In this document: one piece after another, positions 9,448-31,226 of the stretch
Numbering within the stretch: the first letter of the stretch is position 1
Layout of the letters: every line of letters begins with the position of its first letter
Sequence record: MN850584.1
Source of the DNA: Escherichia phage arall
Direction: 5' to 3' (one strand)
DNA length: 64,000 nt
Made by a program: the position numbers and the translations under genes
The notes under the pieces: model-generated
The model's database searches: none
Seen by the model: only the letters and a program-made list of their open reading frames with translations
Told to the model about the DNA's origin: nothing

Positions 9448-9449
9448 AT

Positions 9450-11211: not shown

Positions 11212-11213
11212 TA

Positions 11214-11708: not shown

Positions 11709-11709
11709 A

Positions 11710-11967
11710 TTATTCTACAGGAACTTCTTCACCAAGAGAAACTTCTAAACGGAATGCTTTACTTTCAATACACTCACTACCTTTTAGAAAATCAAATTGC
11801 ACTATAGACTGACTTAATAGGATAGATAGAATCACATCACAATCTTCACTAGGAGCTAGATGTTTGTATTCTTCCTTCAAGGTAACATCATAAAAACATA
11901 AATCCCCTACTCCTAGTTCATCCCATCCTTCCCACGCATCTACAAAGTTAAACTCTAAACCTTTCAT
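11710..11967 (-). CDS. hypothetical protein
   Basis: 85 aa ORF. Confidence 0.5.
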   Translation of the reverse strand: MKGLEFNFVDAWEGWDELGVGDLCFYDVTLKEEYKHLAPSEDCDVILSILLSQSIVQFDFLKGSECIESKAFRLEVSLGEEVPVE

Positions 11968-12488: not shown

Positions 12489-13050
12489 TCTCCTCTAAAA
12501 TAGGCTTAATAAATTCGAAAATTTGTTTTTTACTTTTATCTCGAATATTAAAACAAGGAACATTAAACTTTTTAGCCAACATCCAAGCTGTTCTTGTACC
12601 ACCTAAAGGATCTCCATTTTTATCTGTATTTGCACAAGCTAAAAGAAAACAAGATGGTTTTGGATTCTCAAGATCTCTTCCAAGAACTTGGTGGATATTT
12701 CTTTGATGTAATTTTTTAGCACCTTGAGATAATCTGTCCCAAGCTGGATGCAATTCTTTTGCATATTGCAAGGTTAGAGCATAGTTTACACTATCTGGTC
12801 TGTCAAGAACAATAACCTCTCCCTCTATTTCATTACCTTTAAACGAGAGCCAAGGGATGTATATTTCTTTCTTTGTATTGTTCCCACTATCATATACCCC
12901 GCATTCAAATGCGGAATCTGCACCTTCTGCTTTACCAGATCGCAAAATGAACCATGTAGATAACCATTTTGCAACAGATACCATAGTATCCCATTCTTCG
13001 TCTGTAATATCTCTGCTACCAACACCTGTGTAGAATAAATCGCTCATGGT
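12469..13050 (-). CDS. Rossmann-fold SLOG/DprA-like nucleotide-binding protein
   Basis: ORF track trimmed to M28 (RBS AAGGAGAA); YTGVGSR...RSGKAEGADSAF resembles the GxGxR...G(A)xGxD signature of Smf/DprA/LOG folds. Confidence 0.45.
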   Translation of the reverse strand, partial: TMSDLFYTGVGSRDITDEEWDTMVSVAKWLSTWFILRSGKAEGADSAFECGVYDSGNNTKKEIYIPWLSFKGNEIEGEVIVLDRPDSVNYALTLQYAKELHPAWDRLSQGAKKLHQRNIHQVLGRDLENPKPSCFLLACANTDKNGDPLGGTRTAWMLAKKFNVPCFNIRDKSKKQIFEFIKPILEENGLVQK

Positions 13051-13057
13051 TTTCTCC

Positions 13058-13378
13058 TTAACAAGTAATATTGGGAGTAACAATTGGATTAACAATTGGA
13101 GTAATAGGGTACGTAAACCAAGGGCTTCCAATTTCCCAAGGATAATAAGGTCTACGAGGATCGTATGGAGGAGTTACTTCAGGCTTTTTCCAAATCTCCG
13201 CTAATTGTTTCTTCCATTTATCCCTTGCTGTCTCATTATCTTCATCCAACTGTTCATCATTATCTTTTATTTCTGGTTTTGGAAATAAAAGCTCTTTGAC
13301 TAATTCAACATCTTCCGTCTCAATAGTAGTTTCTTTCGTAAGTTCTCCTACTGTTTCTTTAATTGTGATTTTATACAT
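13058..13378 (-). CDS. hypothetical Pro/Glu-rich protein
   Basis: 106 aa ORF. Confidence 0.5.
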   Translation of the reverse strand: MYKITIKETVGELTKETTIETEDVELVKELLFPKPEIKDNDEQLDEDNETARDKWKKQLAEIWKKPEVTPPYDPRRPYYPWEIGSPWFTYPITPIVNPIVTPNITC

Positions 13379-14124
13379 TAGTCCTCCTCTAAAGTAGAAT
13401 AAAATTGTAACGTATTTGAATCATCAAAATATGCAAAGGTTAAATTACCATTGAAGCAAGATCCTGTGTCCATATATACCCTATTACTGCTAATCACAGG
13501 TTTAGGAACATAAGAATGCCCGTGAAATACATAATCTACTCCTGAAACCCTAGGAAGAAGAATCCCTTCAAGTGCGCAATCTATCATATCACGATCCCAC
13601 ATTAAAGATTCTGTGAATTGAGAAACTTGCTCTTTATTCATATTCAAACAAAATGGCAAAACTTCTGTCACTGGTAAATGTTCCAAAACTGAAGGATACC
13701 CACCGTGAATAAAGCCTAGTTTCATATTACGATAATTGACAACAAGTACAACAGGTAAATCTTCTAGCATCAAAGCAAGAGCAGTTGCACCCTCTTCTCC
13801 ACACTCGTCTAGAACTGTATGGCCTCCGTTCTGAAACCAACATTCGTAATATCGTCTATCACCTTCTAACAACCCTTTAATCATCATATCTTCATGATTT
13901 CCACGAATACCATAACGATTTAGCTTTCTGGTGAATTCAACAACACAACGAAAATTCTGCTTGCCGCGATCTGTAAGATCTCCTAAAGATACAACAACAT
14001 CTTGATCTCGGATACCTAAAGTATTAACACCTTTCTGGTACAAATCAAAGCAACCATGTAAATCACCAATAATAAACAGGTCTTGATCATCTTTTACACT
14101 AATTTCTTGATATACTAACATCAA
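13378..14124 (-). CDS. Ser/Thr protein phosphatase (calcineurin-like metallophosphoesterase)
   Basis: 248 aa; GDLHGC, GDLTDRG, GNHEDM motifs. Confidence 0.85.
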   Translation of the reverse strand: MMLVYQEISVKDDQDLFIIGDLHGCFDLYQKGVNTLGIRDQDVVVSLGDLTDRGKQNFRCVVEFTRKLNRYGIRGNHEDMMIKGLLEGDRRYYECWFQNGGHTVLDECGEEGATALALMLEDLPVVLVVNYRNMKLGFIHGGYPSVLEHLPVTEVLPFCLNMNKEQVSQFTESLMWDRDMIDCALEGILLPRVSGVDYVFHGHSYVPKPVISSNRVYMDTGSCFNGNLTFAYFDDSNTLQFYSTLEED

Positions 14125-14447
14125 CTCTCCTCAAAATCCATAAGTATAAAGATATTAACTTTACCTTCTATATTATGTTCTACAACAAGATCTGCAAATT
14201 CTTTGTAGGCTTTTTCTTCTATTTGTTCAATGTGAGACGCTACATCTTTGTATATAGCGTCACCATCTACTTTAACAAGGAGGAATAGAGATCTTACTTC
14301 AATCTCTTTATTTTTACGGGGTAGAAAATCGACGGCTTCTTGTATACGCCAGCCGAGATACCCTGGAGTCCTTTGAATATCCTCCAAATGACTTTCTAAG
14401 ATTTCCCTTCCTTTGTCTATTAAAGCCTGTTCTGTCGTTATTTTCAT
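14121..14447 (-). CDS. hypothetical protein
   Basis: 108 aa ORF. Confidence 0.5.
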   Translation of the reverse strand: MKITTEQALIDKGREILESHLEDIQRTPGYLGWRIQEAVDFLPRKNKEIEVRSLFLLVKVDGDAIYKDVASHIEQIEEKAYKEFADLVVEHNIEGKVNIFILMDFEES

Positions 14448-14457
14448 CCCCTTCTCC

Positions 14458-15030
14458 TTAATGTGTTAATGAAACTGCGTAGCTAAACACAGGTTCAGAT
14501 ATTACATCGGCTACAGTAATAAAAACGTCTTCGTCTTGAGTTGTTTCTACACGACATACAGTTACACCATTCACCACGAATTCAACGCAATGTGGAATAT
14601 CTTCACAAACGAAGGTAGTGTAAGTAACACCCAAAGCATCATACAAAGATTTAACAGTGTTTGCAAGTGCCGCAGTTTCTTCTTTTTCTGAGACAATGAA
14701 TGCTGTAACAACAAGATTGTTTGCATAGTTTAGACTGTCCTCTATAGCCAATGATTTACAAGGTAGTAATGCAAAATATTTACCTGGTTTAATCAGACCT
14801 GCTTCCCATTGATTCAAAATTGCCTGGGATGGTTTAGTAATATAAAACAGATTTTCACTTGGGTTATCAATATTACTTCTGGCGATACAACGTGAAGGAT
14901 TATTATTATCAAATACATGATCAAAATCTACACAAACAGGTAAACTGAAAGGTGTGAATTTTTTACCTAATAATCCTATGGCTGATAATATGTTTGCTGT
15001 GCTTATCTTCCCGTTAAAAGCTAAACGCAT
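14458..15030 (-). CDS. hypothetical protein
   Basis: 190 aa ORF. Confidence 0.55.
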   Translation of the reverse strand: MRLAFNGKISTANILSAIGLLGKKFTPFSLPVCVDFDHVFDNNNPSRCIARSNIDNPSENLFYITKPSQAILNQWEAGLIKPGKYFALLPCKSLAIEDSLNYANNLVVTAFIVSEKEETAALANTVKSLYDALGVTYTTFVCEDIPHCVEFVVNGVTVCRVETTQDEDVFITVADVISEPVFSYAVSLTH

Positions 15031-15041
15031 ATTTAACTCCT

Positions 15042-15245
15042 TTAACTAGCAACCGTAACTTCCGAACTTTCTTCTTTCGTACTGTCTACGATATGCCTGG
15101 TGGCAATATACGAGACTTGCCAGTTACCATCTGGTGTAGTCTCAATAAGTACCCTATCTACTTCGAGAAAATGCAAAAATTCAACCATCGCTCGCTTCGA
15201 TAGGAATTGTTTTTTAACAGTCTCCTCAAAAGATTGAACTGCCAT
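15042..15245 (-). CDS. hypothetical protein
   Basis: 67 aa ORF. Confidence 0.45.
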   Translation of the reverse strand: MAVQSFEETVKKQFLSKRAMVEFLHFLEVDRVLIETTPDGNWQVSYIATRHIVDSTKEESSEVTVAS

Positions 15246-15254
15246 GTTTCCTCC

Positions 15255-15917
15255 TTATTTAATATTCAATTTTGCACAAAGACGTTGTACCGCTTTGGCA
15301 TCGAACAAACTCCCACGAATAGTTCTCTTTCCTGATTCATTCAGATGTTTTGCAATCGTCATATATGGCGTTTTACAAGCTCTGTATGCAACTAAAGAAT
15401 CTTTTAAAGAAAGCGCAAACTCTTTTGAGCGTTTTGCTTCTTCCGTTTTCGTATAATCTGTTCTTTTGTATTTAGGGTTTGCTGCACCAAGAAGCGTTCC
15501 CTTCGCTTTTGCTACTTTAAGGCTCTTCTTAACACGATCAGATATTGCACGAGCCTCTTCTTCTGCCAGAACTGCTAAAATATTTATTATCATATTTTCA
15601 GCGGAGGGCATAGTTGCTATTCGTACATTAATCATCTCTAACAAGGTTGCAACAGAAGCTGTGTTACGTCCAAGACGGTCAACCTTAGCAACAACAAGTG
15701 TAGCACCTGTTTCTTTGCAAAGATTAACAGCTTTTACAAGCTCTCTACGTTGCTTCCAATCGCCTTTACCCGAATAAAACTCTGCAAAGCTACCTACAAT
15801 AGTATAATTTTCTTGTGAATCCAGGAAGCGTTGGATATCTGCTTCCTGTGATTCTATACCATACTGGTTGCCTTGTTGTTTCTTCTTAGAAAGTCGATGA
15901 TACAGTACAAACTTCAT
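15255..15917 (-). CDS. serine recombinase (resolvase/invertase family)
   Basis: 220 aa; N-terminal YHRLSKKKQ (catalytic Ser), LVVAKVDRLGRN, ISDRVKKSLKVAKAKG; C-terminal HTH-like region. Confidence 0.75.
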   Translation of the reverse strand: MKFVLYHRLSKKKQQGNQYGIESQEADIQRFLDSQENYTIVGSFAEFYSGKGDWKQRRELVKAVNLCKETGATLVVAKVDRLGRNTASVATLLEMINVRIATMPSAENMIINILAVLAEEEARAISDRVKKSLKVAKAKGTLLGAANPKYKRTDYTKTEEAKRSKEFALSLKDSLVAYRACKTPYMTIAKHLNESGKRTIRGSLFDAKAVQRLCAKLNIK

Positions 15918-15974
15918 AATACCCTCCTGTTCTGTTACAGGAAGTATGCACTACCTTAACGTTAAAGTCAACAG

Positions 15975-16190
15975 TTAAGTAGTGGTAATATCATCTTCTT
16001 GAATATCAGGATCAACTTCTGCAAAGATAGCTTCTACAGGAATTTCTTCACCTGCTATTCTAGAAAGAAGCACTGAACCAATAGCTTTTGCGTGTTCTTC
16101 GGATTCCGCATAAACATTAGTCCCTGTGTCTTTTTTCTTAGTTTCGTTAAAATATACCAGATAGTAATTGTATGCCATTATTCTTCCCAA
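15975..16190 (-). CDS. hypothetical protein
   Basis: 71 aa ORF. Confidence 0.45.
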   Translation of the reverse strand: MGRIMAYNYYLVYFNETKKKDTGTNVYAESEEHAKAIGSVLLSRIAGEEIPVEAIFAEVDPDIQEDDITTT

Positions 16191-16429
16191 TCGTTGTTAC
16201 GAGCATTTTCAAGAACCTTGACAACTTCTGCATACTCTACAGCTAAACCAGCACACACTTCAGCTTGTTTTGCAATTGCTTGTTTAAAGAACATAGCGAT
16301 TGCAACACTCTGTGTTGTGTGAATGTTATCTGCTTTAGTTGATACGTGAAGATCAAAATCTTCTTCATCAAAGGTGAGTTCCATAGTAACAATAAATTTC
16401 TCGGTCATAAAAATGCTCCTCTTAAACAA
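16178..16429 (-). CDS. hypothetical protein
   Basis: 83 aa ORF. Confidence 0.45.
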   Translation of the reverse strand: MFKRSIFMTEKFIVTMELTFDEEDFDLHVSTKADNIHTTQSVAIAMFFKQAIAKQAEVCAGLAVEYAEVVKVLENARNNDWEE

Positions 16430-16931
16430 AATAGAAAGGTTGAGTTAAACCCAGCCTGTTTTTTGGGTCGTAGACGTACCAAGCATATGCTGTCTTATCA
16501 GTACCACCTGCAACAAAAGATGGTCGTTCAGAAAGAACAATCAAATTTGTTGGTGGATTCTGTTTATGGAATTCCCTTCGTTTAATAGACTCTAGGAAAC
16601 CAAGACGCAACAAGTATATGCAAACGTCTGCTTCTTTTAAGCTCTTTTGCAAGAACTCAAGTGCAAGTTTGAATGGGGGATTTGTGATTATAATATCCGG
16701 CTTAGTATACCATTCATGGTTAAAATAATCTTTCCCTTCTTCTAACTCACAATATTCTGATCCTTCTGGAAAATGTTGATAAATTGCAGCAGCAGCGCCT
16801 TTACACGGTTCTGCAAAAATAAAACCTTCTTCTTTAAGGTTATTAAAATCTATTACACTAAATAATGCATTTATACATTTTTGTGGAGTAGGATAGTAAT
16901 CAGTTGGTGGACGATCATACTTATTTGCCAC
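16422..16931 (-). CDS. small DNA N6-adenine methyltransferase-like protein
   Basis: 169 aa; DYYPTP and TNPPF (motif IV of amino-methyltransferases). Confidence 0.65.
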   Translation of the reverse strand: MANKYDRPPTDYYPTPQKCINALFSVIDFNNLKEEGFIFAEPCKGAAAAIYQHFPEGSEYCELEEGKDYFNHEWYTKPDIIITNPPFKLALEFLQKSLKEADVCIYLLRLGFLESIKRREFHKQNPPTNLIVLSERPSFVAGGTDKTAYAWYVYDPKNRLGLTQPFYFV

Positions 16932-17349
16932 TACTTAAAATCTCCTCTTTTGTGATTTCAGGGTCTTCTTCAAAAACCATAATATCTCTTAAGAACGTTA
17001 ATTCTTCCATAGATACTGGTATTGTATCTTCTTCTGTTTTTCGTTTACATAAATCGTCAAGAAAGTTTTTAAAGTTTTCTGACAAATCGTAAAATTTCAA
17101 CAGTTGATAATCACAGGAGGAGATCCTATCTAGTTCTAACATTCTTTCTAAGATATTTTCTGTGTTGCCATACAGCACACGAACTTCTCCGAAAGGGTTG
17201 ACTGAATATTGTGAAGTTCTGAACCATCCCTTTTTAGATACAGTGTAACGCTGTTCTGCTAAACTTTCAATAAAATTTTTAGCTCTTTTACAGTTTTGTT
17301 CTAAAGAGTAGTAGGCTTTTTCTACAAAGGTTACAGGTACTGGTAACAT
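16921..17349 (-). CDS. hypothetical protein
   Basis: 142 aa ORF. Confidence 0.5.
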   Translation of the reverse strand: MLPVPVTFVEKAYYSLEQNCKRAKNFIESLAEQRYTVSKKGWFRTSQYSVNPFGEVRVLYGNTENILERMLELDRISSCDYQLLKFYDLSENFKNFLDDLCKRKTEEDTIPVSMEELTFLRDIMVFEEDPEITKEEILSSGK

Positions 17350-17359
17350 ATCTCCTCCT

Positions 17360-17380
17360 AATAAACCCCCTTGAGGGGGT
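17360..17380 (-). terminator. rho-independent terminator
   Basis: hairpin CCCCCTTGAGGGGG with U-tract on - strand. Confidence 0.5.
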
Positions 17381-17390
17381 TTGTGTTAGA

Positions 17391-18044
17391 TTAATTATCA
17401 GAGGATACTTTATCAAGTTTTTCAGAGACTGTCAATACTTTTTCTTGTGATTCTTTCATTTCTGCTAAAATACTTTCAGCTTCATCACTATCAGGATCAC
17501 CAGTCAACAGCATACTAATTAGTTGCTCCTTGCTGAAGTTCAGAATATCTTCCGCTGTTAGTTCCAGTTGTTCTTCGATCTCTTCAATAAAAGTTTCACC
17601 ACCGGAAAAAGCATCTCGTAGTTTTGCAACTTCCATCGCTTCTTCTGGAGTTGCCCCTGCATCTAAAGCTGCTAAAGCAAAATCTGCCCCACTACCAACA
17701 GCATAATAATCTTCAGTTAAAGGATATGCTCGCGTTGGATTATTACCCTCGTGCATATAAATTTTACCGTCTGGGTGAACAACCAATGCCACAAACTCTT
17801 CATCTTCTTTATCAGGATCTGACTGGATCACCAAACCTGGGATTGTCTCTTGTGCTGCTTGGCATTGTAAGTTTTGTTCGAACCAAGAAAAGAAAGTCAG
17901 GATAGAAGACAGACGTCCTGCACCACCAACAAGGTAATCCCCAATTTTACGCACTTTCTTGAAATTTAAAGTGTCTACACGACTACCTACTGTTACTTTA
18001 CCATCAGATAGAATTTTGTTATGTGTTGCAATAATTGTTGTCAT
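17391..18044 (-). CDS. HslV-like (proteasome beta-type Ntn-hydrolase) peptidase with acidic C-terminal extension
   Basis: 217 aa; N-terminal MTTII (Thr nucleophile), KKVRKIGDYLVGGAG, GSGADFALAA parallel E. coli HslV MTTIV...KKVRR...GFAGG...GSGG. Confidence 0.6.
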   Translation of the reverse strand: MTTIIATHNKILSDGKVTVGSRVDTLNFKKVRKIGDYLVGGAGRLSSILTFFSWFEQNLQCQAAQETIPGLVIQSDPDKEDEEFVALVVHPDGKIYMHEGNNPTRAYPLTEDYYAVGSGADFALAALDAGATPEEAMEVAKLRDAFSGGETFIEEIEEQLELTAEDILNFSKEQLISMLLTGDPDSDEAESILAEMKESQEKVLTVSEKLDKVSSDN

Positions 18045-19337: not shown

Positions 19338-19358
19338 ATAAAAGGGGCTTTCGCCCCT
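19338..19358 (-). terminator. rho-independent terminator
   Basis: GGGGCTTTCGCCCC hairpin with U-tract on - strand. Confidence 0.55.
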
Positions 19359-19362
19359 TTGT

Positions 19363-20023: not shown

Positions 20024-20290
20024 TTACTCCGCAATCTGAGCCATGAATTCACGTAGTTCAGAAAAACCTCCTACGTGGGTTAGCTGTTCACCATCTTCCA
20101 CAAAAATCTGAGGAAATGTGCGTGGTAGAACACCTGTTTTCTCTAAAACCAGATTCTGAATCTGATCTAAAGAATAGTCTTCATCTAAGGTAAGATATTT
20201 AAAATCCTGTTCACGCTGTTCTAGTAGAATCTTAGCGTTAGTGCAGAAAGGACAATTTGGTTTACCGTAGATAATAAAATTCATTTTCAC
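20024..20290 (-). CDS. glutaredoxin/NrdH-like redoxin
   Basis: 88 aa; CPFC active site. Confidence 0.8.
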   Translation of the reverse strand: MKMNFIIYGKPNCPFCTNAKILLEQREQDFKYLTLDEDYSLDQIQNLVLEKTGVLPRTFPQIFVEDGEQLTHVGGFSELREFMAQIAE

Positions 20291-21117
20291 TCCTTGTTTA
20301 AAAGTATAGTTAAAGTTCTTACAATACCGCTATCAACACTTCGCGGATTTAAAGTAGGATCTGTTTTTAAATAAGATGTTGCTGGTCTGACTGCTTTGGA
20401 ATTATAGGTTGAAGCAGATACAGGATTAACTGTAACAGATAAATCTATAACAAGAAATATCTTTCGTGCAAAATCATACCAAGAAATATAATCTGCACCT
20501 GCATAGTGTACAACTTTACTATTTACACCATCTTTTACAAGTTTAAAAATTGTTTCTGCAAGATCAGGTGCATAAGTAGGACATGACAAATGATCACATA
20601 CTACATTAAATTCTTTTTGACCACCGTTGTAGCGTTCCAACATAGTTTTCAAAAAGTTATGTCCAAATTCACTATAAACAGAAGCTGTTCTGATAATAAG
20701 TGCTGTAGGACAAACTGTTTGTACTAAAGTTTCACCTAATTGTTTACTGTAACCGTAGGTGTTCAAGGGGTTTGTTTTACTATCTTCTGTGCCAGCAACA
20801 TGCCCATCAAAAACATAGTCTGTTGAAATATGTACAAACTGTATCAGTAAATCATTACATGCTTTGGCAATGTTTGTTGCACCGTATGCATTAACATTTA
20901 TACAGGTGTTAACATCTTCTTCAGCTTTATCTACTGCCGTGTAAGCCGCACAATTCACAACAACATCAGGCACGTGCTGTACAAGACTATTCATAACATC
21001 TTTAAAGTTGGTAATGTCTATATCACTTGCTTCAATCAAAATAACATCTTCGGGCGCAACTTTTGCCAAAGACTGTCCTAATTGACCTTTTGAACCAAAG
21101 ATTAAAAATTTTGTCAA
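20287..21117 (-). CDS. rmlD: dTDP-4-dehydrorhamnose reductase
   Basis: 276 aa; N-terminal Rossmann GSKGQLG; position in rml cluster. Confidence 0.75.
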   Translation of the reverse strand: MTKFLIFGSKGQLGQSLAKVAPEDVILIEASDIDITNFKDVMNSLVQHVPDVVVNCAAYTAVDKAEEDVNTCINVNAYGATNIAKACNDLLIQFVHISTDYVFDGHVAGTEDSKTNPLNTYGYSKQLGETLVQTVCPTALIIRTASVYSEFGHNFLKTMLERYNGGQKEFNVVCDHLSCPTYAPDLAETIFKLVKDGVNSKVVHYAGADYISWYDFARKIFLVIDLSVTVNPVSASTYNSKAVRPATSYLKTDPTLNPRSVDSGIVRTLTILLNKE

Positions 21118-21668
21118 AATATGATCTCCTTTAGTGTTTTGGCTTGCTGATCTTTTTGTGACAAGATAGGTTTAAAATTAATATCATTAAAGATTAAATC
21201 AAAACCCCAATCAATATTGATATCTGGATCATTCCACGCAAGACTACACTCTGAAGTCGGATCGTAATATTCTGTACATTTATATTCAAAATCAGCAATG
21301 TCACTAATCACAACAAAGCCATGAGCGAAACCAGGAGGAATCCAAAATTGTGTTTTATTCTTTTCAGATAAGAGAACACCTACCCATTCTCCAAATGTTG
21401 GACTACCAACCCTAATATCTACAGCAACATCATAAACTTCACCACGAACACAACGTACTAACTTCCCTTGTGGGTTTTTCTTTTGAAAATGAAGCCCACG
21501 TAGAACTCCTCGAATAGAACGTGAATGGTTATCTTGGACAAAGTTTTGTTTACCTATGTATTGATCATATAAAGCCTGATTAAAACTTTCTAAGAAAAAA
21601 CCACGTTCATCTCCGTAAACGTCAGGTTGAATGATCAACAAATCTTCGATTTTTGTTGCTTGAATCAT
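21114..21668 (-). CDS. rmlC: dTDP-4-dehydrorhamnose 3,5-epimerase
   Basis: 184 aa; cupin-type YGDERGFFLESF. Confidence 0.75.
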   Translation of the reverse strand: MIQATKIEDLLIIQPDVYGDERGFFLESFNQALYDQYIGKQNFVQDNHSRSIRGVLRGLHFQKKNPQGKLVRCVRGEVYDVAVDIRVGSPTFGEWVGVLLSEKNKTQFWIPPGFAHGFVVISDIADFEYKCTEYYDPTSECSLAWNDPDINIDWGFDLIFNDINFKPILSQKDQQAKTLKEIIF

Positions 21669-21680
21669 TTAATTTCCCCT

Positions 21681-22550
21681 TTATTTTAATTTAAGTAAAT
21701 ACTTACCGTAGTCTGTTTTACTTAAAACCTCTCCAGAACTTTTTACAGAGTCTAAAGTAATCCATTCATTTTTAAAAGCAATCTCTTCCAGGCATGCAAC
21801 CTTCATACCTTGTTGCTTTTCTATTGCATGAACAAATTGAGATGCTTCCATAAGACTTTCATGTGTTCCTGTATCCAGCCAAGTGAAACCTCTTCCTAGT
21901 TTACAGACACGTAAAGCCTTTTCTTTCCAGTACATCTCATTTATATCTGTAATCTCTAACTCCCCTCTAGCAGAAGGTTTAACGCTTTTAGCTTTCTGTA
22001 CAACAGAATTATCGTAAAAGTACAAGCCTGTGATTGCATAGTTGCTTTTTGGTGCTTTTGGTTTTTCTTCAATACTCACCACTGTACCTTCAGAATCAAA
22101 CTCAACAACACCAAATCTTTCAGGATCATTTACGTGATACCCAAAAATATTAGCTCCACCATTCTTTTCAATATGTTCTTTAGCAGAATCTAAAATGCTA
22201 CCAAAACTCTGACCAAAGAATAAATTATCACCTAGCACAAGTGCTACAGAATCTTCACCAATAAAGTTCTCACCAATAATAAACGCTTCTGCTAAACCTC
22301 TTGGGCTATCCTGTATTGCATACTGTAAGGAAATACCAAAAGAAGAACCATCACCTAGAAGATTTACAAAATTAATTTGATCTTCTGGTGTTGTAATTAT
22401 TAGTATTTCCCTAATTCCAGAAAGCATTAGGACAGAGAGTGGATAATAAATCATAGGCTTATCATAAATTGGTAATAGTTGTTTACTAACCCCTTTAGTA
22501 ACTGGGTAAAGTCTTGTTCCACTACCACCTGCTAAGATAATACCTTTCAT
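21681..22550 (-). CDS. rmlA: glucose-1-phosphate thymidylyltransferase
   Basis: 289 aa; [18 protein letters not shown] signature. Confidence 0.9.
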
Positions 22551-22558
22551 ACTCCTCC

Positions 22559-23548
22559 TTAAACTTTATTTTCCCACCACTCTTTGTTATCTACATACCA
22601 ATCAATGGTTGAATAAAGTTTTTCTTCAAATGTGCCTTTAGCTTTCCACCCTAATTCCTTTTCAATCTTATAAGGATTCACTTCGTATCTTAAATCATGT
22701 CCAGGTCTATCTGTAACCATTTCAATGAGGCTACAAGCATCTGTTTCAGATGGATACACCGCATCCATATAATCACAAATCATATAGATTACATCAATAT
22801 TAGTTCTAGGGTTTCTGCTCCCAATATTATATGTTTCTCCAGATTTGCCTTTAGTTACTACTAGGTGTAATGCTTCTGCGTGATCGTCAACGTATAACCA
22901 ATCTCTTACTTGAAGACCATTGCCATAAACAGGGATTGGTTTATGCATCAAGATATTTGTTATCGTTTTAGGTATTAGTTTTTCTGGATGATGATATGCT
23001 CCAAAATTATTTGAACAATTTGTTATAACTGTCGGAATACCATAAGTACGATGCCATGCTCTTACCAAATGATCGCTTGCAGCTTTAGATGCAGCATATG
23101 GACTACTTGGTTTATAAGGATTCTGTTCTGTAAACGGATAATCCCCTTCTTCCATATCACCATACACTTCATCTGTTGAAATATGATGGAACATTTTAAG
23201 ATTTGATTTATCTCCCATTAAACGAACAGCTTCTAGAAGATTAAATGTTCCAACAATATTTGAATTTATAAAAACACTCGGTGATGCTATTGAATTATCT
23301 ACGTGACTCTCTGCTGCAAGATGCATTATATAATCTGGATTAACATCTGCCACAATCTTAGCAGTTAACTGCGCATTTGTCAAGTCAACACGACAAAACT
23401 TTACATTAGGTGTTTCTGATAAATTTCTAGGGTCTGAAGCGTAACCCCATTTATCTATAACGTAAATATCATTCTTAGTATTTTTAGCCAGGAAACGAAC
23501 TACTGCACTTCCAATAAAGCCTAAACCACCTGTTACTAAGTATTTCAT
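22559..23548 (-). CDS. rmlB: dTDP-glucose 4,6-dehydratase
   Basis: 329 aa; TGGLGFIGS Rossmann, YAASKAASD (YxxxK). Confidence 0.9.
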
Positions 23549-23742
23549 TTAGTCTCCTTCCAATTATTCCCTTCAGTAAAAATAATACCTTCATAAAACA
23601 ACCATCTGGAACCTTTTTCAACAGGAACAGGAATCTCTTCTTCAGTAAAGTTATAAACCTCTCTAGCATCTTCTAAAAGTGATGCAAATGTTTTTGGACT
23701 TACTGTTACGCGAGGAGCATTGATCAGTTGATCTAGCATCAT
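23545..23742 (-). CDS. hypothetical protein
   Basis: ORF track 23545..23835 trimmed to ATGATG 23742 after GGAGGA. Confidence 0.45.
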   Translation of the reverse strand: MMLDQLINAPRVTVSPKTFASLLEDAREVYNFTEEEIPVPVEKGSRWLFYEGIIFTEGNNWKETK

Positions 23743-23755
23743 TCTACTATCCTCC

Positions 23756-24082
23756 TTACCAAACGTGTTGAGAAATAATAGTTTCCGTTTCAATGTTATA
23801 TTTTTCAAGAAGTTGTGCGTAGGCTTCTTTTGCATTCTTATTTAGTTGCTCAAGATCTACAGCTATACTTCCTTCGCCACCTTCTAAATAAATGCCATAT
23901 ATGCAATAAGATTCATCAGCATCATAGAAAGGAGAGATACGGCTTAAATCAAGACCTTCTTGTAAGAACCAATTAAAATCTCCATCAAATTCTTCTTCAA
24001 TTCTAGGATCTTCTCCTACAGCCTCTTCCCATTTATTAAAAGGTGCACCCTGTAACATACGCCATGCAATATCAACCCCCAC
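23756..24082 (-). CDS. hypothetical protein
   Basis: 108 aa; GTG start. Confidence 0.5.
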   Translation of the reverse strand: MGVDIAWRMLQGAPFNKWEEAVGEDPRIEEEFDGDFNWFLQEGLDLSRISPFYDADESYCIYGIYLEGGEGSIAVDLEQLNKNAKEAYAQLLEKYNIETETIISQHVW

Positions 24083-24218
24083 TATCTTCCTCCTCTTCTT
24101 TTTCTTCTGTATGAACGAAACCTAAGCCGTTACAATTCCAACAAGGAATAAATTGTTCCATACTAACAATAAAATTCCCAGTGCCGCCGCAGATAGGACA
24201 AATACTTACATCGTCCAT
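24072..24218 (-). CDS. small zinc-ribbon protein (48 aa)
   Basis: CPICGG...CWNCNG; below track cut-off. Confidence 0.35.
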   Translation of the reverse strand: MDDVSICPICGGTGNFIVSMEQFIPCWNCNGLGFVHTEEKEEEEDSGG

Positions 24219-24220
24219 TA

Positions 24221-24427
24221 TTAAAGCTCCTCAATCTTTTCTAACATCTGTTTTAACTCATTCTCTGTTAACAGAATTTCTGTGATACCATCATAAGTTT
24301 CTACCATCAGAGTAAAACATTTCTCTCCATCTGAACATACAAAAGCACCACCTTCATCTTCTGTTAAGTCAGAATTAATATCTACATCAACAAAATCAAT
24401 CATCTTTTTCTCCTTTGATAATTTCAA
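24221..24427 (-). CDS. hypothetical acidic protein
   Basis: 68 aa ORF. Confidence 0.45.
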   Translation of the reverse strand: MKLSKEKKMIDFVDVDINSDLTEDEGGAFVCSDGEKCFTLMVETYDGITEILLTENELKQMLEKIEEL

Positions 24428-24614
24428 ACTTGGCTACACCATTAACTATAATATGACCGCAAGACAGAACTCCTAGCCAATGATCACCATTCTTTTTTAA
24501 ACGTTTACCGTAAACATCACAGAAACCATTCTGTAATTCGGAAGCCTCGTAAGAGGCTCCCTTTTCGAAAACGTCTTTGAAGTCAGAAATTAATCCAACA
24601 CAAAGTAGTTTCAT
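24396..24614 (-). CDS. hypothetical protein
   Basis: 72 aa ORF. Confidence 0.45.
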   Translation of the reverse strand: MKLLCVGLISDFKDVFEKGASYEASELQNGFCDVYGKRLKKNGDHWLGVLSCGHIIVNGVAKFEIIKGEKDD

Positions 24615-25699
24615 TAAAAGTCTAACTCCTCGTCATCACTTACATCTTTATTTGCTGAATTCAGTTTGTAAGCTGTAATTTGGATCTCTTGTGCTGCTGC
24701 TTGAATTTGATCTGGATTTAACCAAACATCCATCCAAGGCAGTGGACTTTTCTTCGGTGCACGGAATTTGTGTTTCATTTTCAGTCTGCGATAGATAGGC
24801 GCGGCATTGAAGTAAACCCAAAGTTTGAACAACTCTGCGTTACCACCAACGATAACCCTTCCTTCACTAAACAGATAGTCACACCAATCTTCCTCTTGTC
24901 CAACTACCGTATCAAGAATTTCTGTCAGAACGTCGATATTGTCTTCGTATACTTTTCTCCAAACAGGATCTTTCAGCAGTGCATCAATAATAGCATAATC
25001 CATTTTAACGTGCAATAGTTCATCCAACATAATTTTTTGAATGAGTTTAGCTGCACCTACAAACAATTGCTGCTCTGCTAAGGCAAATGTTGCAGCAAAA
25101 GAGGAGATGAACTGAATACCTTCCAGACCGATAAGTGCAATCATTCCTTTCAGGATCAGTAGACGAAGGTTATCATCCTTCTCAATCAGACCTAGAGCAT
25201 ATTTATGTCCTGCCTCTGCCAGATCACTCATTATCTCTTCAACTATACCCATCCTCTGGAAGATTCTTTCATTCTCCATGATCTGATCGATAACTTCATT
25301 CGGATTAGGGATACACTGACGAATAATTTCAGAATATGTCAAAGCGTGTAAAACTTCCATTTCTGATTGCTTCATCATCATTGCACATGCTTCGTTGTTG
25401 CTTAAAAATGGTGCAAACAAAGTGATGATTGATTTAGCAAGTGAATCATTTTCCCATTGGAAAGATAGGTTTTTGATCATAACATCATAGTTGCTTTTAG
25501 AACAAGCTACGAAATCTTTTCGTGTCTGATCTAAGTTTACTTCGTTTTCATCCCAATCTTGCTGTTTTTGTAGTTTGTACAGACGATGCATTTCTGGGTA
25601 TGTTACGTTAATAGAATCAAAAATACCTAACTGTTCTCCCAAAAATACAGGGTAGAAACCTTCTTTGTAAGTGTCGTTGTATAAATTAATTGCTGCCAT
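24614..25699 (-). CDS. nrdB: ribonucleotide reductase small (beta) subunit
   Basis: 361 aa; class Ia R2-like, adjacent to nrdA. Confidence 0.85.
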   Translation of the reverse strand: MAAINLYNDTYKEGFYPVFLGEQLGIFDSINVTYPEMHRLYKLQKQQDWDENEVNLDQTRKDFVACSKSNYDVMIKNLSFQWENDSLAKSIITLFAPFLSNNEACAMMMKQSEMEVLHALTYSEIIRQCIPNPNEVIDQIMENERIFQRMGIVEEIMSDLAEAGHKYALGLIEKDDNLRLLILKGMIALIGLEGIQFISSFAATFALAEQQLFVGAAKLIQKIMLDELLHVKMDYAIIDALLKDPVWRKVYEDNIDVLTEILDTVVGQEEDWCDYLFSEGRVIVGGNAELFKLWVYFNAAPIYRRLKMKHKFRAPKKSPLPWMDVWLNPDQIQAAAQEIQITAYKLNSANKDVSDDEELDF

Positions 25700-26029: not shown

Positions 26030-26055
26030 TTAAGAAAGGGGGACAAAGCCCCCTA
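26030..26055 (-). terminator. rho-independent terminator
   Basis: hairpin AGGGGGACAAAGCCCCCT with U-tract on - strand. Confidence 0.5.
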
Positions 26056-26061: not shown

Positions 26062-28326
26062 TTACATTTTACAGGCGCTACACCCCTCGTCTTCAGAATC
26101 TTCTTGAGCGAGTGAGGATGCCGATTTTGTTCTGCTATTTAGATAGTACAAAGACTTACCACCAAGTTTTGCAAACTGAAGAATATATTGCATTTCTGAT
26201 TTAATGGATAAACGACCACCTTCCATCTTAGAATAGTCAATCCACTTATCACATGATGCACCTTGATCTAAGAATTTAGTCAACAGTCCATATGCTTCAG
26301 CCATATCTTTATCTGGTGTATCCCAAGCCGATTGGTAAATATCTTTTAGTTTATCGTAGTCTGGCACAATAAACAGAACATTACCCTTTTGGCTTTGTTT
26401 ATAAACTATAGTATCACGTACAGGATACACAGAGTTAGTCGTATTACTTACAAGACTACTGGACTCATTCGGAGCAATAGCTGCTAATACACTATTTCGG
26501 ATACCACCTTGTGCAATTATATCTTGTCGTAAACCTTCCCAATCCATTTTAAGTTTAAAATTGCCAATATCGTCTACAGCTTTAGCGTAGGTATCAATAG
26601 GCAACCATCCTTCAGGCCATTTGGTTTTATGCATCCATTCTGCATTACCTTTCTCTTTTGCCAAACGAAGAGAAGCTCTTGCTAACCAATAATAATGTCT
26701 TTCTGCTAATTCGTGAATTAGTTTTTTGCCGTAAGGATCTGAATAAGTAACAAAATTACTTGCCAGATAATGTGCAAGGTTTGTAATACCTACACCGATA
26801 GACCTACGTGCTTTAGCAGTGATTTCGTTATGTTTAAACGGATACTTCATTGTTTCAATAACATTATCAATAGTCAGAACGGTATAATATGCAACATCTT
26901 CATATTCTTCTGGTGTAACACGACCAGCTACAATAGAAGACAGGAAGCATAATGCCAATTCTTGATCTTCTGTATTCTCACCTGTGAAAAGATCAGTCAT
27001 ATTGTGAAATGCTTTCGTAGGTAAGAAAATTTCTTGGCACAAGTTTGACTGGTAAATAACATCCTTAAACGGAGTATGCTTATTAGCATTATCCGCAAAG
27101 AACATATAAATACGTCCTGTCTCTGCTCTTTGTGTAATAATTTCTGCCAGAAGATCTCGTGCTTTTACAAACTTCTTCTTAATTCGTTTGCGACTAACTT
27201 TTTCATATACTTCTTCAAACTCTTCCTCGCTTTTATAAAGCGCCTCATAGAGTTCTGGTGCTTCGTCATAACTGACTAGCATCCAATCTTTACCTTTTGC
27301 TGCACGGCGCAGGAAAGCATTGTTTACTACAATAGAGTAATCAAGTTTATCTACTCGTTTTTCACTAACAGTAGTTGGATTTTTCAAACGTACCAGATCT
27401 TCAAAATCAGGTTCTAGTATTGTAAACGTTACTGTTGCACTTCCACCACGACTTGCTTGTTTTGATGCTCCAACACTTGTCTCCATCCATTTCAGATATG
27501 GTAAAAGACCACCGTGAACGATACGGTTGTTCTTAACACCTTGTCCTGTGGCACGGGTTTGAAGGTTAACACCAATACCTGCATTATTCAATGTATATTC
27601 ATGCGCAAGATAGTTAGCAATTGCTAAAGATTCTGCTGTATCGTCTGCTCTAAACAGACAACAAGAAGCACTACCTTTAATCTTAGTACGCAAAGTTGTT
27701 AAATAAGGCGATGGTAAATTAATCTTAAGATCACTTACGTAGGTATATAGACGTTTAATGTCTTCTACTCTGCGATCTTTTGGTTGAATTTCCATTACCT
27801 TCATTGCTACACCAATGAATAAAAACTGTGGTGATTCAAAAACAACATCATTGATCGCATCTTTCACAAGATACTTATCAACCATCTGGCGCAGTACGGA
27901 ATAACCATAAGTTAGGTTTTTATCGTGATTGACAATTTTACCAATCTCAATAATTTCTTCTTCTGTATAATCCATTTTTCCCCAATAGCCTTTACTTACA
28001 GACATATTGTAGAAATCCAGGAGGGAGGGGATATTGTGATATCCCCCATGAGCCTGTTTATAAATCATACCAAGAAGTAACCGACCTGCCATATCACTAT
28101 ATGCCTGATCTTTCTTATCAATACATGCTGCTATCATAGCTTTATGTAAATCACGAGTAGGCACACCGTCGTAACAACGTTTAACAGCTTCGAGTTCAAT
28201 TTCAGACCAATTTAATTTACCAGCAGCAAACTCTGACCATTTACGAAGTTTTTCTGGATTAAATTCTTCTTTCTTGCCGTTTGTTTTTGTTACATAACGG
28301 ATAGATTTGCTTAGATACTGAGTCAC
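26062..28326 (-). CDS. nrdA: ribonucleotide reductase large (alpha) subunit
   Basis: 754 aa; ATP-cone N-terminus, C-terminal Cys pair (CSACKM). Confidence 0.9.
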   Translation of the reverse strand: MTQYLSKSIRYVTKTNGKKEEFNPEKLRKWSEFAAGKLNWSEIELEAVKRCYDGVPTRDLHKAMIAACIDKKDQAYSDMAGRLLLGMIYKQAHGGYHNIPSLLDFYNMSVSKGYWGKMDYTEEEIIEIGKIVNHDKNLTYGYSVLRQMVDKYLVKDAINDVVFESPQFLFIGVAMKVMEIQPKDRRVEDIKRLYTYVSDLKINLPSPYLTTLRTKIKGSASCCLFRADDTAESLAIANYLAHEYTLNNAGIGVNLQTRATGQGVKNNRIVHGGLLPYLKWMETSVGASKQASRGGSATVTFTILEPDFEDLVRLKNPTTVSEKRVDKLDYSIVVNNAFLRRAAKGKDWMLVSYDEAPELYEALYKSEEEFEEVYEKVSRKRIKKKFVKARDLLAEIITQRAETGRIYMFFADNANKHTPFKDVIYQSNLCQEIFLPTKAFHNMTDLFTGENTEDQELALCFLSSIVAGRVTPEEYEDVAYYTVLTIDNVIETMKYPFKHNEITAKARRSIGVGITNLAHYLASNFVTYSDPYGKKLIHELAERHYYWLARASLRLAKEKGNAEWMHKTKWPEGWLPIDTYAKAVDDIGNFKLKMDWEGLRQDIIAQGGIRNSVLAAIAPNESSSLVSNTTNSVYPVRDTIVYKQSQKGNVLFIVPDYDKLKDIYQSAWDTPDKDMAEAYGLLTKFLDQGASCDKWIDYSKMEGGRLSIKSEMQYILQFAKLGGKSLYYLNSRTKSASSLAQEDSEDEGCSACKM

Positions 28327-29107: not shown

Positions 29108-30079
29108 TCACCATTTTGTATGGTTAGTCAAAAGTTGACGATGTTGAATCCAAGCGCAGAAGTTTCCACTCCACAAACGATGTTTACGATCCATATGTGT
29201 AATACCTTCTTCCCAAGAAGTAGGGAACGGAGGAATATTAATACCACCTTTCTGTTGTTTTAATCCTGACAAATCCATTTCTTTCATTGGCGTTGCCTGG
29301 TGTTCAAACGGAGATGCATGTACCTTTTGTCCAGACAGCAAACGAGAATAGATATCCAATGCTTTATCTTTAGTATCATTCAACTTACGATAACTTACCT
29401 GAGCGCAACAAGAAGCTGAAATAGCTTTTGCTTCCTCTTCTGTCAACATTTTCTCGTTGGAGAAGGTTTCACCCAAGAAATAACGGATCATACCAGTTTC
29501 TGGATCTCGATCACGATTAACGTAAGGTGTATGCCATTCCCCTGGGAAAAGAAGATATGGTTCAGAAGATTCATACAGTTTTTTAATTTCTTTAGCAAGA
29601 GCCTCAATAGTAGGATCTGCATCAGCATCTACACGCAACCACAAGAAGTTTTCTAGCTCTGTAGTGGTTACTACAGTCTTCATACGCTGGAATGGTTCTA
29701 GTAGGCGGTTTGCAACCTGTTTATGATAACCAGCAAGGGCAAACTCTTCTGCAAAACGTGCAGCACTTAGTGCAGCCAAGTCCCACCATTCTTTTGCAGT
29801 GTAACCTGCATCAATCAGGGCATCGTGATCTGTGCCTTTATCTTGCATACCTGGTTGGTTAGCACCAAAACGATAAGGACGTGCTGGAGATTGCCGTACC
29901 ATTTCAATTAGAGTTTTAACAGGGATAGCTCGACTTGATGCAGCATTACGAGAAAACAAACGATGCGTCATCAATTCAGAGTGAATGATTCGAGGATATT
30001 CAAGTTCAAAGGTAACAATATCCTTACCTTCAGATGTTTGAGAGTGTGCAATAATTTTTGCTGAAATAGAATCTGTCAT
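29108..30079 (-). CDS. thyX: ThyX-like flavin-dependent thymidylate synthase (divergent)
   Basis: 323 aa; THRLFSRNAASSR in place of canonical RHRx7S; FLWLRVDADA. Confidence 0.65.
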   Translation of the reverse strand: MTDSISAKIIAHSQTSEGKDIVTFELEYPRIIHSELMTHRLFSRNAASSRAIPVKTLIEMVRQSPARPYRFGANQPGMQDKGTDHDALIDAGYTAKEWWDLAALSAARFAEEFALAGYHKQVANRLLEPFQRMKTVVTTTELENFLWLRVDADADPTIEALAKEIKKLYESSEPYLLFPGEWHTPYVNRDRDPETGMIRYFLGETFSNEKMLTEEEAKAISASCCAQVSYRKLNDTKDKALDIYSRLLSGQKVHASPFEHQATPMKEMDLSGLKQQKGGINIPPFPTSWEEGITHMDRKHRLWSGNFCAWIQHRQLLTNHTKW

Positions 30080-30088: not shown

Positions 30089-30679
30089 TTAAGGTAGTAA
30101 AATACTTTCAATTTCTTCCCACTGATTATCTAAACCAGTGATAATTACATTAGGAAGTTTCTTTAACTCTTCCAAGTACGGATCTTCATAAATAGTGTTG
30201 AAATATATTTTCAACGTTTCATCTGGGAATAGGACAAGATTTTCAGCCCTATCATCAATAGTTACGTCGCAAGGCAATAAGTATTTTTCTTTTGTTGCGA
30301 AAAAACCATTACCAGATGTTCTACTAAAATCCACTTTATCTAAAGATCGTGTTACGTGTCTATATTTAGAACTAAGGTGTCCACCCTTAGTGTGGCTTGC
30401 TATAGATATATTAGCTCCATTTGCAATTATACGATGAACAACATCTGTACTATTAGGTACTACTCCCATAGTATCATATAGATGTTGGTTATCCCAAAAA
30501 GAGTAAGGATCTACACCAAATTGCTTTTTAAAATCAGGAAAATATTTCGTAATATCATAATGCACAGTCTTTTGTGTCTTATCAAACTTGATATTAGATC
30601 TACTTACCGCATTTAACCAACTCAACCATTCTATATCGGCAGGAGCTATTACTAAATCCCAATCACATACTAGACGCAT
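30089..30679 (-). CDS. HAD-family 5'(3')-deoxyribonucleotidase-like
   Basis: ORF track trimmed to M39 (RBS AGGAG); DWDLV motif I, DVTIDDRAENL. Confidence 0.5.
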   Translation of the reverse strand: MRLVCDWDLVIAPADIEWLSWLNAVSRSNIKFDKTQKTVHYDITKYFPDFKKQFGVDPYSFWDNQHLYDTMGVVPNSTDVVHRIIANGANISIASHTKGGHLSSKYRHVTRSLDKVDFSRTSGNGFFATKEKYLLPCDVTIDDRAENLVLFPDETLKIYFNTIYEDPYLEELKKLPNVIITGLDNQWEEIESILLP

Positions 30680-31226
30680 TATTTCTCCTGTTATAACATT
30701 TTCTACACATTGTTTCGTAAATGTCTTCTCCTCCAATAACAATCTGTTCTTTAGAGTCGATAAGTCTAGCATTGAAAATAGCTTTTCTTCCACATTTACA
30801 AATGCTTTTCAATTCTGTAATTGAATCTGCTATGGCTAATAACCGTTCAGAACCTTCAAACAATTCTGTAGCAAAATCTGTTTTAAGTCCATAGCAGAAT
30901 ACAGGAATATCGTAATTATCTACCACATCTCCAAGAATGTCAACCATATCTTTAGTTAGGAATTGTGATTCGTCCACAAATACTGCATCTACTGGATTTT
31001 CTTTAAGCTGTGTATAAATTTCCAGCATATCTTCTTTTGTTTTAACTGGTTTTGCTTCCTCTTTAATACCTATCCTAGAAGCAATAGCACAACCAGATCT
31101 GGTATCTAAAGCTGAAGTTAAAAGAAGAACTTTCATATTTCTTTCTTTATAGTTCCAAGCTGTTTGTAGCAGATGTGTGCTTTTACCACTGTTCATTGGA
31201 CTATATCGGAAATAAAGTTTAGCCAT
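30663..31226 (-). CDS. tdk: thymidine kinase
   Basis: 187 aa; P-loop SPMNSGKST; C-terminal Cys pairs. Confidence 0.9.
   Translation of the reverse strand: MAKLYFRYSPMNSGKSTHLLQTAWNYKERNMKVLLLTSALDTRSGCAIASRIGIKEEAKPVKTKEDMLEIYTQLKENPVDAVFVDESQFLTKDMVDILGDVVDNYDIPVFCYGLKTDFATELFEGSERLLAIADSITELKSICKCGRKAIFNARLIDSKEQIVIGGEDIYETMCRKCYNRRNNASSM

Follow-up and report, generated by a model that had tools for sequence, protein, structure and literature searches.

Mimivirus, by way of UDP-L-rhamnose, and the chloroviruses encode both the synthesis of a sugar donor and the transferases that build the glycans of their capsids or fibrils, independently of the host, a subject reviewed in PMC9614988. Virion glycosylation by phage-encoded transferases has been described in mycobacteriophages Che8 and Rita, as cited in PMC11256854. 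Here, we analyzed a 64,000-nucleotide stretch of Escherichia phage arall [MN850584.1; "the window" hereafter means this whole stretch], of which positions 20024-23548 carry four contiguous genes, rmlB-rmlA-rmlC-rmlD, followed by a glutaredoxin gene, grx. Judging from their sequences, the rml genes make up a complete and apparently functional pathway to dTDP-L-rhamnose. The cluster is a known genomic feature, ordinary in kind as a virus-encoded nucleotide-sugar pathway, and is already annotated in more than 100 related phages. Its position in a DNA-metabolism region was called 'peculiar' by Olsen 2020, who guessed at rhamnosylation of hydroxymethylated nucleotides (PMC7552041), and Maffei 2021 reported phi92-like phages to be 'exceptionally susceptible' to restriction-modification systems despite 'a putative dTDP glycosylation machinery' (PMC8594841). 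What we add is modest, namely the coupling of rml to four co-conserved phage glycosyltransferases, a split between core rmlCD and accessory rmlBA that matches the supply offered by the host, and the placing of rml as an insertion in an nrdB-grx operon.

All four Rml proteins score above the curated NCBIfam equivalog cut-offs against which the TIGR scores were judged, and the Pfam assignments are concordant [Table 1]; the margin of RmlD over the TIGR01214 cut-off is modest (253.8 vs 224.05), and the predicted end product is dTDP-L-rhamnose rather than, for example, 6-deoxy-L-talose. The best solved match of RmlB is Salmonella RmlB (1g1a, E 1e-116), and its GxxGxxG, TDE and YxxxK motifs are kept. 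RmlA matches the Salmonella and E. coli RmlA structures at E 5e-125 with every nucleotide- and sugar-binding motif present, GGSGTRL, VLGDN, EEKP and LDTGT all being intact in the alignment to solved enzymes, and RmlC matches Salmonella RmlC (1dzr) at E 6e-64 with the catalytic His, Lys and Tyr kept. RmlD retains GxxGQLG, STDYVF and YxxxK in the same type of alignment; its nearest solved enzymes are those of Bacillus anthracis (3sc6) and Clostridium acetobutylicum (1vl0), with Salmonella 1kbz ranking behind, a comparison bounded by which enzymes have been crystallised. The positions of the open reading frames (ORFs), the equivalog scores and the intact catalytic residues bear out the proposal, made in a preliminary description of this DNA, that the four contiguous genes encode the full rmlB-rmlA-rmlC-rmlD pathway.

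Along rmlB-rmlA-rmlC-rmlD-grx, the genes are spaced by gaps of 8 and 12 nt and then by two junctions with 4-nt overlaps; a further 4-nt overlap joins rmlB to the ORF upstream of it. A consensus scan found no terminator-like site within the rml cluster; on the coding (minus) strand, terminator-like hairpins were found only at 26039-26053, which has a plus-strand counterpart at 26037-26054, and at 27511-27527, and a further hairpin lies on the plus strand at 19341-19360. The promoter scan was uninformative (39 promoter-like sites vs 43.9 expected). The rml genes share the orientation of nrdB, nrdA, the ThyX-like gene and tdk, which the preliminary description had read correctly from the letters and which is seen in both the ORF layout and the annotation. 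The sign of the GC skew flips at ~8 kb and ~44 kb, at the transcription-direction switches bounding the long minus-strand block that includes rml. The window is a Justusliebigvirus, its region sharing 99.8% identity with ESCO8 and inny, two Escherichia phages of that genus, and the lytic-phage setting assumed at the outset is correct; the region is also 98-99% identical to about 50 further Justusliebigvirus (phi92-like) genomes of the subfamily Stephanstirmvirinae, in most of whose records the four genes carry the rml annotation.

Candidate users of the sugar are encoded elsewhere in the genome. In the whole-genome annotation of the close relative muut (NC_052657), four consecutive glycosyltransferase genes (GT1 to GT4) occupy 107413-110589, directly upstream of the primase/helicase and DNA polymerase genes, ~70 kb from rml and beyond the window. 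ESCO8 and inny, the closest relatives of the window, carry the transferases, and their arrangement is kept in viral contigs down to ~50% identity. GT1 has 187 residues; GT2 (228 residues) is a GT-A enzyme of confirmed fold whose DxD motif, FDDD, is invariant; GT3 and GT4 are GT-B paralogues 41% identical to each other. No transmembrane-like segments were found in GT1 to GT4, which are thus soluble. The GT2 family is virus-restricted, with two loci in the genomes of 185,579 species vs 24 viral contigs; both loci are on metagenome-assembled contigs, one bearing the full phage cluster (L010) and the other a lone, 35%-identical GT2 homologue (L011). Beyond its own group, the relatives of GT2 are solely mycobacteriophage transferases at 26-30% identity, including those of cluster-F mycobacteriophages. 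Fold searches with Foldseek returned generic GT-A enzymes only, with no pointer to the acceptor; the structural matches include Megavirus and Mimiviridae transferases as well as wall-teichoic-acid and polysaccharide transferases. In muut, a Ter-like set (HAD hydrolase, ComF-like phosphoribosyltransferase, phosphatase, TerC, TelA, TerF-vWA and TerD) lies just upstream of the transferases, at ~96066-105407, and the unannotated proteins of that phage include some with NADAR and Macro domains.

Two arrangements in other viruses bear on what the transferases may do. In a distant viral contig (L024, IMGVR_UViG_3300031372_000212, 8049-11597), a gene for a short-chain dehydrogenase/reductase resembling dTDP-glucose 4,6-dehydratase sits between GT1 and GT2 of a GT1-GT2-GT3 cluster. 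Its product scores 195 bits against TIGR01181, below the cut-off, and the arrangement gives a physical link between a putative dTDP-sugar gene and transferases. In lambdoid phage contigs, a GT2-like gene and a GT-B gene are paired in the late operon, either directly after antiterminator Q (L034, 8242-12521), the locus that holds the toxin genes in Stx phages, or between the lysis genes and terminase (L033, 6780-15371). No nucleotide-modifying enzyme was found in these lambdoid neighbourhoods among the 25 of 63 gene families shown. The late-operon position fits with transferases that would act while particles are being built.

To compare the distributions of the two clusters, 50,697 phage records were searched by tblastn and hits were tallied by the occurrence of Escherichia or Klebsiella in the record name. 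RmlC was found in 105 Escherichia and 8 Klebsiella records, RmlD in 106 and 8, GT1 in 105 and 9, GT2 in 106 and 9, and GT3/4 in 106 and 10; RmlA was found in 87 Escherichia records and in too few Klebsiella records for these to be listed. A threshold of 80% NrdB identity picks out 132 records of the subfamily. These counts indicate that rmlC-rmlD and the four glycosyltransferases are universal in Stephanstirmvirinae. ESCO37 (Phapecoctavirus, OM386659, 14565-18153) reads nrdB-rmlC-rmlD-grx, without rmlB or rmlA, an absence likewise recorded by those who described the phage (PMC10269720), and Klebsiella phage KP2025 (PP919962, 4799-8106) has the same reduced form; the rmlC and rmlD ORFs are intact in both. 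From the difference in hit counts, the rmlCD-only form is present in ~18 Escherichia-phage records and in most Klebsiella-phage records of the subfamily. Because ESCO37 and KP2025 belong to different lineages and the deep-branching Klebsiella phage 05F01 has all four genes, rmlBA would have been lost at least twice, independently, from a complete ancestral cluster.

This split matches what the host provides. In all Enterobacterales, the dTDP-4-keto-6-deoxyglucose needed for enterobacterial common antigen (ECA) comes from RffH and RffG, while RmlC and RmlD are restricted to bacteria that make rhamnose glycans. All 5,426 complete E. coli genomes searched had a detectable rmlA-like gene, in a median of 2 copies; those listed bear the annotation rfbA, and rffH presumably accounts for the second copy. 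An rmlC-like gene was detectable in 2,213 of the same genomes (41%, a lower bound).

The reading that we favor, and hold with about even confidence, is that a working dTDP-L-rhamnose pathway supplies the phage's own four transferases, which would build a rhamnose-containing glycan, preferably on a virion protein; enzyme activity, the coupling of the two clusters and the acceptor are all deduced here from gene content. The purpose of the pathway would be to guarantee dTDP-L-rhamnose in any host. In enterobacteria, RffH/RffG or RfbA/RfbB always supply dTDP-4-keto-6-deoxyglucose, and many of these hosts are without RmlC and RmlD. Since hosts always carry out the first steps and often not the last two, rmlC-rmlD would be indispensable to the phage and rmlB-rmlA optional flux boosters; and because a host without rhamnose glycans has no rhamnosyltransferase, the consumer of the donor would have to be phage-encoded. 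GT1 to GT4 would then assemble the glycan during lytic growth, with an acceptor other than bulk DNA. That the phage needs dTDP-L-rhamnose itself is an inference that accounts for the pattern of gene content better than the alternatives. Among acceptors we rank virion protein first, a tentative choice that falls somewhat short of an even chance. It may even be that Stephanstirmvirinae virions bear a rhamnose-containing glycan made wholly by phage enzymes, with donor synthesis by rmlCD with or without rmlBA and assembly by the four transferases, a proposition that we would sooner doubt than assert.

Several observations weigh against this reading. Both the rml and the transferase clusters sit amid replication and nucleotide-metabolism genes. 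GT2 shows no significant similarity to Che8 gp108-110 (BLASTP E all >=0.36), and orthology with these proven virion transferases was therefore rejected. Against the TET-associated DNA glycosyltransferase (TAGT) family PF20691, GT2 scores 22.1 bits where the cut-off is 27.5, and it and its lambdoid-phage relatives match PF20691 repeatedly at sub-threshold scores of 21-23 bits; GT2 also matches the PHROG of the T-even beta-glucosyl-HMC-alpha-glucosyltransferase (phrog_842, E 4.5e-5; HMC, hydroxymethylcytosine). rmlBA is dispensable, as ESCO37 shows. The co-occurrence of rmlCD with the transferases is confined to one monophyletic group and may reflect shared ancestry alone. Finally, it is the nucleotide-level sensitivity of the search that makes the host rmlC figure a lower bound.

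The history of the locus bears on how much its position can be made to say. The order thyX-nrdA-nrdB-rmlB-rmlA-rmlC-rmlD-grx-endolysin-phoH is identical in 05F01, a deep member of the subfamily, to whose proteins RmlA is 70%, RmlB 58%, RmlC 50% and RmlD 40% identical. Compared with EmilieFrey, the five genes show 34 synonymous and 11 non-synonymous differences, a ratio of non-synonymous to synonymous change (pN/pS) of 0.088, and the ratio with respect to muut is 0.078; these values indicate that the rml cluster is under purifying selection (pN/pS ~0.09). The GC content of the rml genes is 34.4-34.8% and their GC content at third codon positions (GC3) 0.20-0.23, at the low end with respect to neighbouring phage genes (0.23-0.35). 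The best nucleotide match in the 5,426 complete E. coli genomes is 65-68% identical, and 0 genomes cover 80% of the region. A recent insertion derived from the host, on which the preliminary description would have given up its reading, is thus excluded by the subfamily-wide synteny, the pN/pS of ~0.09, the phage-like GC3 and an identity to E. coli of at most 68%. RudolfGeigy, a Vequintavirus that represents the rml-less sister group, has the ThyX-like gene, nrdA and nrdB, then grx directly adjacent to nrdB, followed by nrdD, nrdG and phoH; nrdA-nrdB synteny is common to this phage, 05F01, ESCO37 and KP2025. Because nrdB and grx are adjacent in RudolfGeigy, we take rml and a few small ORFs to be an insertion between them, and the location of rml among DNA-metabolism genes to be at least partly a historical accident of the insertion point. 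The cluster would have been inserted long ago, in the Stephanstirmvirinae ancestor, and kept by selection since.

Remodelling of the host envelope, whereby the transferases would add rhamnose to the lipopolysaccharide (LPS) core, a lipid-linked intermediate or an exopolysaccharide and so block superinfection or the sticking of progeny to debris, is an unlikely alternative but one with several points in its favor. Cyanophage nucleotide-sugar genes have been given a similar envelope interpretation. GT3 and GT4 are GT-B, GT4-like enzymes, a type characteristic of LPS and polysaccharide assembly, GT2 has the wall-teichoic-acid and polysaccharide transferases among its structural matches, and phages of this kind recognise surface glycans and the LPS core (PMC8594841; PMC11990801). 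Against it, the life cycle of the phage is strictly lytic, the annotation of the whole genome includes no flippase, polymerase, ligase or Gtr-type membrane component, and the transferases are without membrane segments. The same transferase set is moreover found in phages whose host, by isolation or attribution, is E. coli, Klebsiella, Salmonella, Serratia, Citrobacter or Pseudomonas; a set that stays constant though host surface glycans differ argues for a phage-encoded acceptor. Alteration of the O-antigen, which the preliminary description had put forward, finds no support, given soluble transferases in a lytic phage and a whole genome in which no membrane GtrA, GtrB or GtrC of the Gtr-type seroconversion system, or other Gtr-like membrane enzyme, is annotated. 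A version in which draining of the ECA precursor dTDP-4-keto-6-deoxyglucose masks the receptor was rejected, since the wecB-dependent receptor is the NGR glycan rather than ECA and the remaining wec genes are not required (PMC8669472; PMC11990801).

We consider it rather improbable that the glycan is placed on some other cytoplasmic target, be it a host or non-structural phage protein, in takeover or anti-defence, or a small nucleoside-like metabolite. GT1 to GT4 are soluble and cytoplasmic, as such a role would have them, and genes of anti-defence type (Sir2, NADAR, Macro and NAMPT) abound in the genome. Ter-like gene sets have been proposed to make a nucleoside-like metabolite, and in relatives the transferases lie just downstream of such a set (TerD, TerF-vWA, TelA, TerC, ComF-like phosphoribosyltransferase and HAD hydrolase); in KP2025, however, they are scattered and not beside Ter genes. 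There is also no specific candidate for the acceptor, and no EarP-like or toxin-type glycosyltransferase signature was detected.

Glycosylation of DNA, the original suggestion of Olsen 2020 (PMC7552041), is about as improbable, by a slight degree more so, even when limited to certain sites, with rhamnose, alone or with other sugars, on a minority of bases or motifs that would be shielded from nucleases other than the restriction-modification systems tested. It would account for the place of rml in the nucleotide-metabolism block and of the transferases directly upstream of primase and DNA polymerase, as well as for the weak matches of GT2 to TAGT and to the T-even PHROG; the phage encodes a Dcm-like C5-methyltransferase, and a nucleotide-sugar pathway with DNA-acting transferases is proven for RB69 and DLP3 (PMC13326640). 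On the other hand, phi92-like phages are exceptionally restriction-sensitive according to the literature (PMC8594841), every TAGT match is under the family cut-off, and the GT2 and GT-B pair occurs in small lambdoid phages without a base-modifying enzyme among the families shown. TET/JBP proteins, 2-oxoglutarate (2OG) oxygenases and ThyA-type hydroxymethylases or hydroxylases were not found near dcm or among the 43 unannotated muut proteins, the only thymidylate-synthase homologue found being the ThyX-like protein, whose gene is common to Vequintavirinae relatives lacking both rml and the transferases. The presence of tdk implies ordinary use of thymidine, and Dcm is not visible in the matching stretch of 05F01. 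A route in which the Dcm-like methyltransferase and a TET-type enzyme would lead from 5-methylcytosine through 5-hydroxymethylcytosine to glycosylated cytosine was rejected, as no TET/JBP or 2OG oxygenase was found. DNA glycosylation, another of the roles first suggested for the cluster, is thus disfavoured, at least in bulk, by the published restriction sensitivity and by the failure to find a base hydroxylase or TET enzyme.

Least credible of all, and in our view very improbable, is pure manipulation of the nucleotide pool, in which the pathway would be a sink or buffer for dTTP, or dTDP-rhamnose would serve only to feedback-inhibit host RmlA/RffH with no transferase involved: rml does have nrdAB, the ThyX-like gene, tdk and an NT5C-like nucleotidase gene as neighbours, and RmlA perturbation is reported to affect the dNTP pool in mycobacteria (PMC8870461), but insertion into a pre-existing nrdB-grx operon accounts for the location, an AT-rich phage (~36% GC) has no obvious gain from draining dTTP, and the dTTP effect proposed in the preliminary description fails to explain why it is rmlC and rmlD that are universally retained and the dTTP-consuming RmlA that is dispensable.

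If a phage-made rhamnose glycan on the virion were confirmed, no other tailed phage infecting Gram-negative bacteria would, to our knowledge, have been shown earlier to produce the activated sugar as well as the glycan of its own particle. phi92-like and phAPEC8-like phages infect a very broad range of hosts and are often considered for phage therapy; the glycan might contribute to the broad host range or environmental robustness of this therapeutically used group, and a glycan coat on the particles could affect antibody recognition, stability and pharmacokinetics. The role of the pathway also bears on whether the phage DNA carries a cryptic modification, and the rhamnose genes of these phages are sometimes flagged as virulence-factor hits in safety screens (PMC13407771).

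Table 1 Coordinates of the rml cluster, its neighbours and other genes of the window, with the scores or evidence on which each assignment rests.
Feature	Position	Strand	Product or size	Score or evidence
rmlB	22559-23548	minus	dTDP-glucose 4,6-dehydratase, 329 aa	TIGR01181 441.7 bits vs cut-off 365.1
rmlA	21681-22550	minus	glucose-1-phosphate thymidylyltransferase, 289 aa	TIGR01207 473.2 vs cut-off 360.65
rmlC	21114-21668	minus	dTDP-4-dehydrorhamnose 3,5-epimerase, 184 aa	TIGR01221 260.4 vs cut-off 155.75
rmlD	20287-21117	minus	dTDP-4-dehydrorhamnose reductase, 276 aa	TIGR01214 253.8 vs cut-off 224.05
grx	20024-20284 (ORF to GTG 20290)	minus	glutaredoxin, CPFC motif	PF00462 45.4 vs 22.9
Small ORFs between nrdB and rmlB	23545-24614	minus	run of small ORFs	hypothetical in EmilieFrey annotation
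nrdB	24614-25699	minus		ORF and annotation
111-aa ORF	between nrdB and nrdA	minus	111 aa	ORF call
nrdA	26062-28326	minus		ORF and annotation
ThyX-like gene	29108-30079	minus	flavin-dependent thymidylate synthase homologue, 323 aa	THR in place of RHR
NT5C-like gene	30089-30679		nucleotidase, adjoins ThyX-like gene	score below cut-off
tdk	30663-31226	same orientation as rml	near ThyX-like gene	
Sir2-like gene	8078-8890	minus	Sir2-family protein	
dcm-like gene	10222-11211	minus	Dcm-like C5-methyltransferase	
Recombinase-like gene	15255-15917	minus	serine recombinase/invertase-like	
Adenine methyltransferase gene	16422-16931	minus	N6-adenine methyltransferase	
hslV-like gene	17391-18044	minus	HslV-like peptidase	

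The glutaredoxin gene, which the preliminary description had grouped with the rhamnose pathway, is indeed present next to it, but its functional partner is nrdAB: because nrdB and grx are adjacent in the rml-less RudolfGeigy, it belongs with the reductase genes and not with rml. Its start is most likely the ATG at 20284, which lies behind an AAGGAG ribosome-binding site and is the start annotated in relatives, and less likely the GTG at 20290. The protein has the thioredoxin-fold domain with a CxxC active site and scores below every NCBIfam glutaredoxin equivalog cut-off. No Pfam or NCBIfam match was obtained for the two small ORFs tested between nrdB and rmlB; similar small ORFs persist in phages that have lost rmlBA.

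The ThyX-like protein passes the Pfam Thy1 cut-off (37.0 vs 24.8) and fails that of TIGR02170 (35.6 vs 87.9); it has the ThyX fold and, as had been pointed out, reads THR where the canonical signature RHR...S...R begins. The substitution is real, but it is not particular to this phage. An exhaustive search placed 4,936 cluster representatives (at 50% identity) in the family, and a comparison of 40 members sharing 37-53% identity shows H39 to be invariant and T38 nearly so; the family is also present in the rml-less phages PVP-SE1, 4MG and RudolfGeigy. The suggestion that the gene might partner rml in an altered pyrimidine chemistry was rejected on these grounds, since the family is huge, THR is its norm and rml-less relatives have it. 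In a profile alignment the three ThyX motifs are non-collinear, the segment matching ThyX residues 31-72 falling at positions 220-263 of the phage protein, which hints at a circularly permuted ThyX. Most simply, the gene encodes a divergent thymidylate synthase, and nothing links it to rhamnose.

Elsewhere in the window, the minus-strand interval 8078-18044 is dense in modification and possible counter-defence genes [Table 1], and 15 tRNA genes (Met x2, Leu x2, Ser x2, Lys, Tyr, Asn, Thr, Gly, Gln, Pro, Phe and Ile) lie on the plus strand at 47046-50101. Several database records named 'Campylobacter phage' (host C. jejuni; MG065639, MG065645, MG065656, MG065689, MG065650 and others) match these coliphages at 98.6% identity over the rml region and carry the same transferases; they look like mislabelled or contaminant Stephanstirmvirinae.

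Set beside the systems closest to it, the cluster shares with the bacterial rml (rfb) genes of E. coli and Salmonella, rfbBDAC, the same four enzyme families and catalytic residues, and among solved proteins the phage RmlA, RmlB and RmlC are closest to the enterobacterial enzymes. In contrast to its bacterial counterpart, the phage cluster is ordered B-A-C-D rather than the rfbB-D-A-C annotated at the E. coli matches, its nucleotide identity to E. coli is only ~65-68%, its RmlD is nearer to Firmicute structures, its RmlB is shorter (329 vs 355-361 residues), and it lies in an nrdAB-grx operon and not in an O-antigen cluster, without an adjacent rhamnosyltransferase, flippase or polymerase. Other Stephanstirmvirinae (phi92, phAPEC8, ECGD1 and the BASEL phages Bas60-62) have the identical locus, at 98-99.8% identity within the genus and with no difference of substance, whereas ESCO37 and KP2025 carry only rmlC-rmlD.

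RB69 and DLP3, which make arabinosyl-5-hydroxycytosine, and the T-even phages with their glucosylated hydroxymethylcytosine resemble the phage studied here in combining a nucleotide-sugar pathway with several transferases in a large lytic myovirus (PMC13326640); theirs, however, come with a ThyA-family hydroxylase or hydroxymethylase and restriction-resistant DNA, whereas the search made here turned up no enzyme of that kind and the phages are sensitive to restriction. With mycobacteriophage Che8 the phage shares soluble, phage-encoded transferases acting in lytic growth, the timing being a presumption in the present case; unlike the phage here with its rml genes, Che8 has no donor-synthesis genes annotated beside its transferase operon. 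The giant viruses follow the same logic of donor plus transferases, by a UDP-rhamnose route with different enzymes and in eukaryotic hosts; their virion glycans have been shown by experiment, while that of the phage described here is putative.

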